Shown here in pieces: positions 15,815 to 17,615 of a stretch of DNA of 64,000 bases. The position numbers and the translations under genes were made by a program. How positions within the stretch are numbered: position 1 is the first letter of the stretch; the number at the start of each line of letters is the position of its first letter. The stretch lies in assembly GCF_058153355.1 (NCBI RefSeq), contig NZ_CM177019.1, one strand, 5' to 3'. Under the pieces are notes generated by a model. The model was not told where the DNA came from and ran no database searches. It saw only the letters and a list, made by a program, of their open reading frames with translations.

Positions 15815-15922
15815 AATGGCATTCCTGATAAATGGCGCACATCCTTAGCGAGTCCATTTATCTAAATAAGACAAAGGTAATCACTCAACAACGATGCATA
15901 CCTGATATTAATAATGGCAGGA

Positions 15923-17278
15923 TTATTTCAAGTCGGGTAAGTCGTTGTATAAGCCCTGCTTAATTCCCGCTAATGGAATAAGGTTATTCACCGCAGCGGC
16001 ATAATTCACTGCGGCAACCCAGCCATCATAATTGGCATTTATTTCAGCTGATTGCGCCTGAAAGACATCTTGCTCAACGGTTAAGAGATCGTTCAGGCTG
16101 CGTTTACCCAATTTATATTCATTTTGGTACACATCTCGCGTTCTGTGCGCACTTTCAGATTGCGCTAACCCAGCCTCTTCACGACCCCGTGCCCCAGTCC
16201 AGTTGGCATACGCCACCGACGCCCGTTGCATAACATCTAATTTCGCCTGCTCAACCTGCGACGCGGATATTTTTTGTTGCCCTTCGGCTTGCTGAACCTG
16301 AGCCGAAACCGCGCCGCCCTGATACAACGGCGCATTGACGTTCAACTGTAACTGGTCGTCCCAGTACGAGCGGTCGCTGGTCTGGTAGCGCGTTTTGCCG
16401 CCCTGAATACTGAGCGTCGGCCAGTATTGCGCTTTCGTTTTTTCCACGCCGTACTGTGCAGACTGGCGTAAGTTTTCTGCCGCCAGTACAAGCGGGATGG
16501 ACTGGTAATCAATATTTTTCAACGATACCGGCTGCTCGGCTAATTCAGCAGGTGGCTCGGCTATCGCCTCCGGTTGGACGCCAGTGAGCACCGCCAGTTG
16601 CGCTTTGGCGCTCGCCATCTGCGCCTGATATTGCTCCAGCGTCGAGCGCATTCCCGCTATACGCGTCTGGGCCTGCAATTCATCTGACGATGAGTTCAGA
16701 CCAGCGTTAGCGCGCAGCGCCGCCATGTTGTAGACGTTTTCCAGCGAGTGGATATTGCGTTGAGCCGCATCGCACAACGCCTGATAACGACTGACCTCCA
16801 TATAGGCAGTCGCCGTTTTTTCGGCAACATCGGTTAAAGTTGCCATCAATTTAAAGCGGTAGCTGTCACGAGCGGCGGTTTGCAGTTTGATATCGTTATC
16901 TGTTTTACCGAAGTCATACACCAGCTGTGTCAGGGTTATGCCATACGAAACGTTGTTATCAAGCCTGCCGCTGGAGTCCGTTTGCCGTGACGGCCCCGCG
17001 TTGCCGGTTAATCCAACGTGCGGATACCAGGCACTTTTGGCTTCATCAATTTGCGCTTCGCCAATACCTATCTGCGCCGCCTGTTGAGTGACGTCGGGAT
17101 TTCGCGCAAAGGCGCGTAATATACTTTCCTGTAAAGATAATCGGGCAACTGGCGTTACCGCTGGGGCGTTCGCCCATTGTGGCAGCGGTGCAGCAATTGT
17201 AGCTTCTCCCATCACCATAAAACTTATTAAAAAAATAAACCCATTATTTTTACGGCTTTTAAACTGGAATCGCGCCAT
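15923..17278 (-). CDS. TolC-family outer membrane efflux protein, likely the outer-membrane component of the T1SS for the downstream adhesin
   Basis: 451-aa ORF with N-terminal signal-peptide-like region (MARFQFKSRKNNGFIFLISFMVMGEATIAAP) and coiled-coil-rich OEP-like sequence (many Q/A/L heptads). Sits 108 bp upstream of and co-directional with the adhesin gene. Not part of K-12 gene order as I recall it. Confidence 0.8.
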   Translation of the reverse strand: MARFQFKSRKNNGFIFLISFMVMGEATIAAPLPQWANAPAVTPVARLSLQESILRAFARNPDVTQQAAQIGIGEAQIDEAKSAWYPHVGLTGNAGPSRQTDSSGRLDNNVSYGITLTQLVYDFGKTDNDIKLQTAARDSYRFKLMATLTDVAEKTATAYMEVSRYQALCDAAQRNIHSLENVYNMAALRANAGLNSSSDELQAQTRIAGMRSTLEQYQAQMASAKAQLAVLTGVQPEAIAEPPAELAEQPVSLKNIDYQSIPLVLAAENLRQSAQYGVEKTKAQYWPTLSIQGGKTRYQTSDRSYWDDQLQLNVNAPLYQGGAVSAQVQQAEGQQKISASQVEQAKLDVMQRASVAYANWTGARGREEAGLAQSESAHRTRDVYQNEYKLGKRSLNDLLTVEQDVFQAQSAEINANYDGWVAAVNYAAAVNNLIPLAGIKQGLYNDLPDLK

Positions 17279-17567
17279 AGATAAGTCACTTCCTTCCAGG
17301 TCATTATTTTAACTGGTTTTTATAACCAGTCTCATTTTATTAAGAAGGGTAATAACTTGTGCACCTCTTTTGTCGAACATTGAGATTGGAAAAGAAATGC
17401 AGTTAAAAAGCTTATACGTTATTTATTTAGAATACACTACGACTTTTAGATTACCATCATACGCATTAAGAATAATCCACAGCAATAAGTGATTAGCATC
17501 ACAGATTTATCGCGTATATATCATTTTTTTGTGACTTATTTATTAAAGGAATAAGAAAGGAAATTTG

Positions 17568-17604
17568 AATTAAAGACAAAGGCGCAGTACAGAAAGTACT
17601 GCGC
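17568..17604 (-). terminator. Rho-independent terminator downstream of ybaT
   Basis: Perfect 9-bp stem gcgcagtac/gtactgcgc with 5-nt loop at 17582-17604, followed on the minus-strand transcript by a U-rich run (complement of taaagacaaa). Confidence 0.6.
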
Positions 17605-17615
17605 GCAGAGAGGTT

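Follow-up and report, generated by a model that had tools for sequence, protein, structure and literature searches.

Is the T1SS (type I secretion system) locus that lies beside ybaT in this Escherichia coli chromosome an insertion into a K-12-like gene order, or does K-12 represent the altered state? The initial annotation favoured insertion, likened the locus to the RTX-like exoprotein island of O157:H7, and proposed from base composition that it was horizontally acquired and possibly silenced by H-NS. In the window, by which we mean the whole 64-kb stretch of DNA analysed, the ORF map places ybaT and all island genes on the minus strand, to which all features described below belong. The core gene bordering the island is ybaT (17616-18908), identified by annotation and profile search as an APC-family permease of 430 aa. 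A hairpin scan confirmed the presence behind it of the intrinsic terminator that had been proposed to precede the leader (17582-17604; a 9-bp stem followed by a T-rich tail). The interval between ybaT and the next gene, delimited by composition and by alignment of relatives, is a 337-bp AT-rich operon leader or regulatory region with a GC content of 0.320 (17279-17615). It is followed by the gene for a TolC-family T1SS outer-membrane channel of 451 aa (hereafter OMP; 15923-17278, model TIGR01844), a spacer of exactly 108 bp (15815-15922, GC 0.38) in which the hairpin scan found no terminator-like site, and the giant T1SS adhesin gene siiEA, of which the window holds the 5' 15.8 kb (1-15814, start codon 15812-15814; open ORF and model NF047714). 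The co-directional arrangement with the OMP gene first, 108 bp from the adhesin, is therefore as originally described. The siiEA frame runs for 5,271 codons without a stop and is still open at window position 1, which aligns 2,861 nt before the end of the gene in two relatives, leaving a remainder of about 2.9 kb beyond the window.

The interval is already known: it belongs to O-island 28 (OI-28), the siiEA locus, previously characterised in E. coli. OI-28 of EDL933 (Z0608, Z0609, Z0615, Z0634, Z0635), which corresponds to S-loop 42-44 and ECs0540-0544 of Sakai, occupies the same site next to ybaT with the same gene order, so that the resemblance to the O157:H7 island pointed out in the initial annotation proved to be identity of locus. 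As in OI-28, glsA-ybaT lies directly upstream, with the OMP gene (orthologous to tolC28/Z0608/ECs0540) first and the adhesin gene, the counterpart of Z0609 plus Z0615 or ECs0541 plus ECs0542, second. Leader length, distance of the RstA box, OMP, adhesin N-terminus and repeat type are all the same. The differences concern the number of adhesin repeats, a single base of the RstA box, and the integrity of the adhesin ORF: in O157:H7 a TAG at codon 1462 splits it, and two RTX proteins have been described, whereas here it is one open frame. Identity in the core genes at the flanks is only about 94-96%, which indicates that the present lineage is divergent. The complete gene order was read in MFDS1022581, Sakai and 2013C-4282, where an ABC transporter and an HlyD-type adaptor, or membrane-fusion protein (MFP), complete the island and end at cueR (in Sakai, glsA-ybaT-337 bp-OMP-adhesin-ABC-MFP-cueR). 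The ABC protein of the relatives scores 836 bits with TIGR03375 and the MFP 328 bits with TIGR01843. In every relative examined the two genes lie just beyond the position corresponding to the window edge, where they had been expected; completeness of the locus here is deduced from these relatives, 94-98% identical, the ABC/MFP/cueR end being off-window. As a separate observation on strain 2013C-4282, its hemH-adk insertion gives a 99.8% match, and its island region only about 96.5%.

The predicted adhesin is assigned to its family by its N-terminus, which scores 499.9 bits with NF047714, "BapA-related adhesin SiiEA" (cut-off 425), and carries a BapA prefix domain at residues 5-69 (NF033677, 63.5 bits, cut-off 35). 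Within the first 1,000 residues the Ca_tandemer repeat model NF033510 scores 631.8 bits over nine stretches and NF012196 scores 292 bits; internal repeats are about 70% identical. Residues 97-100 (15515-15526) form a TAAG di-alanine motif, the sole TAAG in 5,271 residues, which is kept in Sakai, MFDS1022581, E1V33 and E. whittamii. It sits where LapA-like adhesins have their LapG cleavage site, and the presence of the motif suggests a role in processing. A few motifs of the GxGxD/N type (GTGYNDTFF, GRGGNDTLN, GNGSDVVNG), possible RTX nonapeptides, are seen at the C-terminal end of the orthologue in MFDS1022581. Elsewhere siiEA alleles are often pseudogenised, and function of the gene in the present strain is thus not guaranteed.

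The channel gene has a clear affiliation. The OMP reaches 413.4 bits with TIGR01844, the type-I-secretion TolC subfamily (cut-off 225), against only 63.7 bits with the housekeeping TolC equivalog NF007002 (cut-off 495), in agreement with the initial view that it is not a housekeeping efflux channel; beside siiEA, E. coli genomes annotate it as "TolC family outer membrane protein". One could still read it as a general efflux channel adjacent to the adhesin by coincidence, a view to which a weak similarity to NodT/TolC efflux channels and a GC content typical of core genes lend some colour. Besides the profile scores, the gene is always found alongside siiEA, the two being lost or decayed together, and in EDL933 deletion of tolC28 reduces adherence, giving the same phenotype as mutation of the ABC, MFP and adhesin genes (PMC12758282). 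We consider the general-efflux reading effectively refuted, its residual probability being negligible.

The same OMP, leader and siiEA start, with siiEA annotated as such, were found beside ybaT in 958 of the 5,426 complete E. coli genomes. In K-12 MG1655 the order is glsA-ybaT-cueR with a 124-bp gap and the T1SS genes are absent, as the initial annotation states, and this K-12-type junction is present in 4,459 of the 5,426 genomes, including K-12, O26:H11, UTI89 and EC958. Taken by itself, the lack of the locus from 82% of complete E. coli genomes would favour its horizontal insertion between ybaT and cueR, with K-12 as the ancestral empty site, and the published designation as an O-island and talk of its "acquisition" (PMC12758282) point the same way. 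So does its detection in Escherichia only when species-representative genomes were scanned for the OMP, a scan with strict peptide patterns that found few loci and in which the lack of a match (E. fergusonii, E. albertii and others) does not amount to absence.

The K-12 spacer itself decides the direction of change. Its counterpart in the alignment is the final ~100 nt of the MFP gene, from which it differs by about 8 mismatches and an indel of 1 nt, and the codons kept there encode the canonical C-terminus of the HlyD family (the profile alignment reaches position 422 of 422). PGAP labels the K-12 remnant as frameshifted and lacking its N-terminus, and the remnant is fused to cueR. The supposedly empty site thus contains a degraded fragment of the gene that ends the island, and because this remnant of about 100 nt persists before cueR we regard the K-12 order as the product of a deletion; the claim of an insertion relative to K-12 is reversed. 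On the other side the junction lies inside the ybaT terminator hairpin, K-12 homology beginning at 17588, and no more than a few bases are common to the junction and its two sides. Further observations run against insertion. The annotation of three relatives shows neither an integrase nor a tRNA nor flanking repeats in the interval from ybaT to cueR, and no significant repeats were found at the island boundary visible in the window. The stop codon of the MFP gene overlaps the start codon of cueR in the same three relatives, an arrangement hard to make by insertion. The identical site is occupied in E. whittamii and in Escherichia sp. E1V33. The reading with K-12 as an empty site is refuted by the remnant, unless those ~100 nt pre-date the HlyD-family gene, and we hold insertion to be very unlikely. 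The deletion of an ancestral island leaves room for an earlier event: horizontal acquisition by an Escherichia ancestor, before E. coli diversified, is possible. In the literature searched we found no statement on the polarity of the deletion.

Composition had been the other argument for foreign origin. The leader is indeed strikingly AT-rich: its GC of 0.320 is the lowest of the 64 kb, only 0.17% of all 337-nt windows are equally low, and it falls 4.3 sd under the mean of the non-adhesin part of the window. GC is 0.602 in the adhesin body, 0.52 in the remainder of the window and only 0.52 in the OMP gene. The contrast between leader and adhesin therefore stands as a description, and could be cited for insertion, but as an argument for foreign origin it is weak. 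Only the adhesin is GC-rich, mainly through second codon positions (GC2 0.54 versus about 0.42), a consequence of its Thr/Ala/Val/Gly-rich repeats, whereas GC3 of the OMP, ABC and MFP genes (0.53-0.71) overlaps that of the neighbouring core genes ybaT and cueR (0.66-0.68).

What, then, does the AT-rich leader do? In Sakai it has the same length of 337 nt, without indels and with few substitutions; mean column identity in a three-sequence alignment is 98%, and conserved blocks are recognisable across eight Escherichia sequences. Farthest from the OMP gene lies an RstA box, TAATTCAAATTTCC (17559-17572), at -294 to -281 from the ATG, which matches the box mapped in EDL933 at 13 of 14 positions, with one mismatch to the published sequence and at the same position; the eight-sequence alignment shows no conservation of the box in E1V33 or E. 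whittamii. A search with the Pho-box consensus at three or fewer mismatches gave no match in the leader, and the best Pho-box-like sequence, CTTTAATAAATAAGTCAC (17531-17548), has four mismatches and is a candidate only. A conserved GATATATA (17515-17522) follows 8 nt downstream, and judged from sequence the two together are a candidate for the published PhoB-dependent promoter. A predicted CRP-like palindrome, TGTGA-N6-TCACT (17488-17503), has invariant arms and a variable spacer in the eight Escherichia sequences. The -35 ATGATG and -10 GTGTATTCT elements predicted by BPROM in EDL933 (PMC12758282) are identical here (17429-17460), and the block that holds them is nearly invariant between species. 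A proximal conserved block (17289-17363) contains a predicted promoter-like TGCACA-18-TAAAAT, a putative 7-bp hairpin (17312-17330) and the Shine-Dalgarno sequence GGAAGGAAG (17289-17297). All 56 of 56 cells of the hairpin are paired and its fold z-score is -2.3; four of its seven pairs vary, only to G.U on the sense strand, these one-sided changes including no compensatory pairs, and the shuffle control was uninformative. Nothing in 15000-20200 matched Rfam at E<=1, hence no known riboswitch or sRNA in the leader, and the small leader ORFs of 20-40 aa found no support. Two further candidates were discarded: a 13-nt long-range complement between 17277-17289 and 17531-17543, to which the E1V33 substitutions give no support, and short direct and inverted repeats in 15700-17750, which look like chance. 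The leader holds three candidate promoters, a distal one of Pho type at about -237, the BPROM one at about -151 and a proximal one at about -56. Very probably the PhoB- and RpoS-dependent promoter elements described in O157:H7 lie in the leader as well.

A different role was suggested at the outset, namely that the leader is mainly an H-NS nucleation site that would silence the operon, a silencing that RstA, PhoB or sigma-S would counteract. The leader's GC minimum is what an AT-rich silenced promoter would display, strong RpoS dependence and stationary-phase induction are common at H-NS-repressed promoters, and H-NS represses other RTX operons (reviewed in PMC12846084). However, our literature search yielded neither H-NS binding data nor results from hns mutants for the locus, and the regulators that have been published, RstA, PhoB and RpoS, are activators or sigma factors. 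The high-affinity H-NS 10-mer TCGATAAATT is matched in the leader only at two mismatches, a level that occurs 63 times in the window and is not discriminating. Moreover, conservation between species in long blocks suggests sites for specific regulators rather than mere AT-richness, and the GC-rich operon body would be unfavourable to H-NS spreading. We therefore treat silencing as the main function of the leader as a tentative proposal, somewhat on the improbable side.

The published work on O157:H7 supports a regulated adherence function. The T1SS and RTX-type adhesin locus is required in early adherence and is activated by RstA, which binds the box at -294 to -280 in EDL933 (PMC12758282). 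Z0608 is RpoS-dependent, by 55-fold (PMC2907692), the locus is induced at entry into stationary phase (PMC2241611), and PhoB regulation of ecs0540-0544 is cited from Yoshida 2010 in PMC3978041 and PMC12846084. Requirement for adherence and colonisation and responsiveness to Ca2+ have likewise been shown in the O157:H7 literature, the functional data all coming from that serotype, whose adhesin ORF is TAG-split.

Related systems help to place the locus. LapA of Pseudomonas fluorescens, with LapEBC, and other LapA-like T1SS adhesins are giant, repeat-built proteins that carry their T1SS signal at the C-terminus and use a dedicated TolC-type channel. The siiEA locus agrees with them in the giant repeat adhesin and the dedicated channel, and shares an LssB/LapB-type ABC protein (TIGR03375), an N-terminal module and the single TAAG near residue 100; it differs in gene order, and in three relatives the annotation from ybaT to ybbJ, which takes in the island and its surroundings, shows neither the LapG protease nor the LapD c-di-GMP receptor. 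With BapA/BapBCD of Salmonella enterica it has in common the BapA prefix-like N-terminus (NF033677), Ig-like tandem repeats, a cognate T1SS and the NCBI name "BapA-related", a likeness assessed at the N-terminus and in repeat family; chromosomal locus and gene order are different, the OMP gene here preceding the adhesin. SiiE of SPI-4 (siiABCDEF) in S. enterica, the origin of the "sii" names, is also a giant Ca2+-binding BIg-repeat adhesin served by a T1SS, and genome annotations report an adhesin for colonisation of the cattle intestine. The siiEA locus lacks the SiiAB proton-channel genes and differs from SPI-4 in order and site, and the NCBIfam model places SiiEA as BapA-related, not with SiiE.

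Taken together, it is highly probable that this interval represents the promoter-proximal end of the OI-28/siiEA T1SS-adhesin operon, and that the island is ancestral and was deleted from K-12-type genomes. Orthology, architecture, leader conservation and the deletion scar are matters of observation; the mechanism that we propose is read from the gene content. The operon would run from ybaT to cueR through the TolC-type channel, the giant adhesin, the LssB/LapB-type ABC exporter and the HlyD-type adaptor. The three transport proteins would constitute a T1SS exporting an adhesin of ~6,000 residues, built of Ca2+-stabilised Ig-like repeats, by way of a C-terminal signal. The BapA/LapA-like N-terminal module may be expected to plug the adhesin in the TolC-type channel, which would lead to surface display and early attachment, and the 337-bp AT-rich spacer, with the RstA box mapped in EHEC, would be the control region of the operon. 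For E. coli sensu lato, an island at this site would be the ancestral state, and the K-12-type loss would cover ~25.5 kb, reaching from the terminator of ybaT to within about 100 nt of the end of the HlyD-family gene.

The value of the window is mostly one of annotation, and no long-standing question is opened by it. In EHEC O157:H7 and O145:H28 the locus is recognised as a factor in colonisation, and it illustrates the export and regulation of a giant adhesin; experiments used the nonsense-split O157:H7 allele, and the present siiEA is an intact-looking allele in a divergent E. coli lineage. Since K-12-type genomes bear a deletion scar, the label "acquired" for OI-28 is misleading; the deletion reshaped the region upstream of cueR and removed part of the ybaT terminator. 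In a wider reading, to which we give even chances, the island is ancestral and the K-12 junction, carried by ~82% of genomes in phylogroups A, B1 and B2, is one old deletion allele spread by homologous recombination, while in island strains cueR, overlapped in translation, closes an adhesin operon under PhoB, RstA and RpoS. If this is true, the 5' region of cueR in scar strains would consist of what is left of the T1SS adaptor gene, the ybaT terminator of the same strains would lack its 3' arm and U-tract, and the dosage of the copper regulator could be coupled to adhesin expression.

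A giant adhesin open reading frame starts at 15814 on the minus strand and runs stop-free over 5,271 codons to window position 1, preceded on the same strand by a TolC-family outer membrane protein (OMP) gene (15923-17278), ybaT (17616-18908) and glsA (18911-19843). The spacers, 108 bp between OMP and adhesin genes (15815-15922) and 337 bp between ybaT and the OMP gene (17279-17615; hereafter the leader), match exactly the sizes given in the initial annotation, and the AT-richness it had noted in the leader was borne out. With a GC content of 0.320 the leader is the GC minimum of the 64-kb window, lying 4.3 sd under the mean of the non-adhesin part, and 0.17% of 337-nt windows are equally low. 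It includes the ybaT terminator hairpin (17582-17604), which has a 9-bp stem and a T-rich tail. Next lowest in GC is 50421-50906 (minimum 0.326), directly after a 1,049-aa acrB-like ORF; a perfect CRP consensus, TGTGATCTTCATCACA (51684-51699), lies upstream of an ORF at 51778-52329, in AT-rich sequence beyond the downstream end of acrB.

The GC contrast within the locus, from which foreign acquisition had been argued, is real (0.602 in the adhesin part versus 0.52 in the OMP gene), yet it is a weak sign of foreign origin. The adhesin excess falls mostly at codon position 2 (0.54 versus about 0.42 in neighbouring genes), because the protein is rich in Thr (15%), Ala (14%), Val (11%) and Gly (10%). 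The GC3 values of the OMP (0.53-0.55), ABC transporter (0.71) and membrane-fusion protein (0.67) genes overlap those of ybaT (0.66-0.68) and cueR (0.68). Z0609/Z0615 had been flagged earlier as compositionally atypical (Reva and Tümmler 2005).

On TIGR01844, which describes the TolC subfamily of type I secretion, the OMP reaches 413 bits (cut-off 225), compared with only 64 bits on the housekeeping TolC equivalog (cut-off 495), in agreement with the secretion role first proposed for it. Over its first 1,000 residues the adhesin reaches 499.9 bits on the curated "BapA-related adhesin SiiEA" model (cut-off 425) and also matches models for tandem Ig-like repeats stabilised by Ca2+ and for a BapA prefix domain. 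When window 15500-18000 was compared by megablast with 5,426 complete E. coli genomes, the ybaT part was present in 5,422, and the entire OMP gene, leader and adhesin start in 958, annotated as "TolC family outer membrane protein" and "siiEA". MFDS1022581, O157:H7 Sakai and 2013C-4282 share the order glsA, ybaT, 337-bp leader, OMP gene, siiEA (20.5-21.7 kb), T1SS permease/ATPase, HlyD-family adaptor, cueR. The transporter and membrane-fusion genes expected off-window thus sit just beyond it in these relatives; the ABC protein belongs to the LssB/LapB type (TIGR03375, 836 bits) and the adaptor scores 328 bits on TIGR01843.

These genes are ECs0540-0544 of Sakai and Z0608, Z0609, Z0615, Z0634 and Z0635 of EDL933 (O-island 28, OI-28), so the initial annotation was right to place an RTX-like island beside ybaT in O157:H7. 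The locus has been described before and characterised by experiment: according to Niu et al. 2025 (PMC12758282), the T1SS and the RTX-type adhesin that OI-28 encodes are required for mouse colonisation and for early adherence to epithelium. In the same work, mutation of rstA lowers the expression of all five OI-28 genes, RstA binds the regulatory region of the OMP gene tolC28 via the box TAATTCAAATTACC at -294..-280, and Ca2+ raises OI-28 expression. Activation of ecs0540-0544 by PhoB is attributed to Yoshida et al. 2010, as cited in PMC3978041 and PMC12846084; RpoS dependence was 55-fold for Z0608 and 20-fold for Z0609 (Dong and Schellhorn 2009, PMC2907692), ECs0540 and ECs0541 are induced on stationary-phase entry (Bergholz et al. 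2007, PMC2241611), and the distribution of the island has been described (Ogura 2007; Cooper 2014). Our additions are modest: the reading of a deletion scar, an intact allele and a footprint of conservation in the leader.

The window siiEA allele is unbroken over all 5,271 codons present. In Sakai (locus L004, 11355-31823) siiEA is a single 6,822-codon frame with one in-frame TAG at codon 1462, and the "two RTX proteins" of O157:H7 (ECs0541/ECs0542, Z0609/Z0615) are this one frame split by the TAG. Independent decay of the island is common. In UID2309220033 siiEA is frameshifted and the OMP gene contains an internal stop; in E. whittamii an internal segment of the OMP gene is missing and the adhesin frame stops early; the E. 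coli representative SCPM-O-B-8794 retains fragments alone (a remnant of ~3.7 kb), and 2013C-4282 has an siiEA annotated as frameshifted. Repeat copy number in siiEA also varies; set against the closest relative (L001), the window has ~3 kb fewer repeats in one place and ~0.9 kb more in another (window 8705-9486 and 13198-14125 versus L001 11105-14883 and 18595-18628).

A single TAAG, conserved in relatives, lies at adhesin residues 97-100, after the BapA-prefix domain; in LapA-like adhesins the LapG cleavage site occupies this position. The adhesin would be exported C-terminus first through the ABC, membrane-fusion and OMP proteins; its N-terminal module would then, by analogy with LapA-like adhesins, hold it back in the TolC-type channel. 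Each T1SS and adhesin gene is required for adherence (PMC12758282).

The Sakai leader is equal in length to that of the window, from which it differs by few substitutions and no indels (mean column identity 98% across a three-sequence alignment). The RstA box reads TAATTCAAATTTCC in the window (17559-17572, -294..-281 from the ATG), one mismatch from the published box. Eight Escherichia leaders were aligned, among them those of Escherichia sp. E1V33 and E. whittamii; these two do not preserve the RstA-box region, whereas several blocks downstream of it are conserved. The first is a candidate Pho-box-like element, CCTTTAATAAATAA(G/T)TCA (17531-17548), the best in the leader with 4 mismatches to consensus, followed by GATATATA. 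A predicted CRP-like site, TGTGA-N6-TCACT (17488-17503), has invariant arms and a variable spacer across the eight leaders; just two sites of this type occur in the 64 kb. A long, nearly invariant block (17429-17460) holds the -35 and -10 predicted by BPROM in published work, and a proximal invariant block comprises a predicted promoter-like TGCACA-18-TAAAAT, a 7-bp hairpin (17312-17330) in which 4 of 7 pairs vary, solely to G.U on the sense strand, and a Shine-Dalgarno sequence. In a predicted fold of minus-strand RNA (17270-17420; z-score -2.3), the conserved CCCUUCUU / AAGUUAUU stretch pairs with the OMP Shine-Dalgarno region around the small hairpin; all positions are invariant, hence no covariation test applies. 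The leader had no Rfam match. Such discrete blocks fit a promoter region under several specific regulators and are neutral on H-NS binding, by which the operon was first suggested to be possibly silenced. No H-NS data for this locus turned up in the literature searched, and an H-NS motif scan of the window was not discriminating.

Window core genes are ~95.7-96.2% identical to a K-12-like strain, 94-96% to Sakai and 97-98% to MFDS1022581; 2013C-4282 shares a hemH-adk insertion at 99.8% identity, its island region being just ~96.5% identical. The window comes from an E. coli lineage that is divergent and mosaic. The insertion (~0.7 kb, window 33040-33875; top match 2013C-4282) occurs in 3 of the 5,426 genomes and carries an orphan minus-strand ORF (33191-33696) whose N-terminus, MRYRCLLPTGILLLASLLTGC..., resembles a lipoprotein signal; a REP-like element adjoins, and the ORF had no match in NCBIfam, Pfam, PADLOC or PHROG. 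Between copA and ybaP (22610-22937) the window lacks ybaQ, present in K-12 and Sakai, and its ybaK-ushA interval (24416-24451) lacks two small genes of MFDS1022581 (DUF6896 and a hypothetical).

The locus had been read as an insertion next to ybaT, and here the polarity proved wrong: K-12 holds a remnant of the HlyD-family gene at cueR. In K-12 MG1655 a 124-bp gap separates ybaT from cueR, of which 98 nt carry the PGAP annotation of a frameshifted gene remnant without N-terminus in assemblies of K-12-like strains. The remnant aligns to the final ~100 nt of the island HlyD-family gene, contiguous with cueR, from which it differs by ~8 mismatches and one indel of 1 nt; the neighbouring codons of cueR itself are almost identical in K-12-like and island-bearing sequences. 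The retained codons (...VDIRTGKKSVLDYLLKPFNKAQEALRER) form a canonical HlyD-family C-terminus, the TIGR01843 alignment reaching the final profile position (422/422), which rules out stray non-coding DNA put to use by an incoming island. At the other end, K-12 homology to the window begins at 17588, within the ybaT terminator, of which K-12 retains the 5' arm and loop and has lost the 3' arm and T-tract. From the adaptor remnant and the cut terminator, the K-12 order is the product of a deletion of ~25.5 kb, which corresponds to L004 9588-35061. As one contiguous stretch, the K-12-type junction occurs in 4,459 of the 5,426 genomes, including K-12, O26:H11, UTI89 and EC958, and with the 958 island-bearing genomes accounts for 5,417. 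Escherichia sp. E1V33 and E. whittamii carry the island at this same position. Between ybaT and cueR, MFDS1022581, Sakai and 2013C-4282 have neither an integrase nor a tRNA nor flanking repeats, and the window-visible island boundary has no significant repeats. An Escherichia ancestor may have acquired the locus earlier; one species-level scan with strict peptide patterns found close relatives in Escherichia only.

The K-12-type deletion leaves the adaptor-gene relic as the cueR upstream region (K-12-like locus L002, 5901-6030, versus window 17582-17604). In island-bearing strains the HlyD-family stop codon overlaps the cueR start by 4 nt (10267-10270 in the relative L003, 35158-35161 in L004, 5968-5971 in 2013C-4282), so that cueR could belong to the adhesin operon as its final gene, coupled to it in translation. 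In K-12-type strains the ybaT terminator has lost its 3' arm and T-tract to the deletion, so transcription of glsA-ybaT may read through into cueR.
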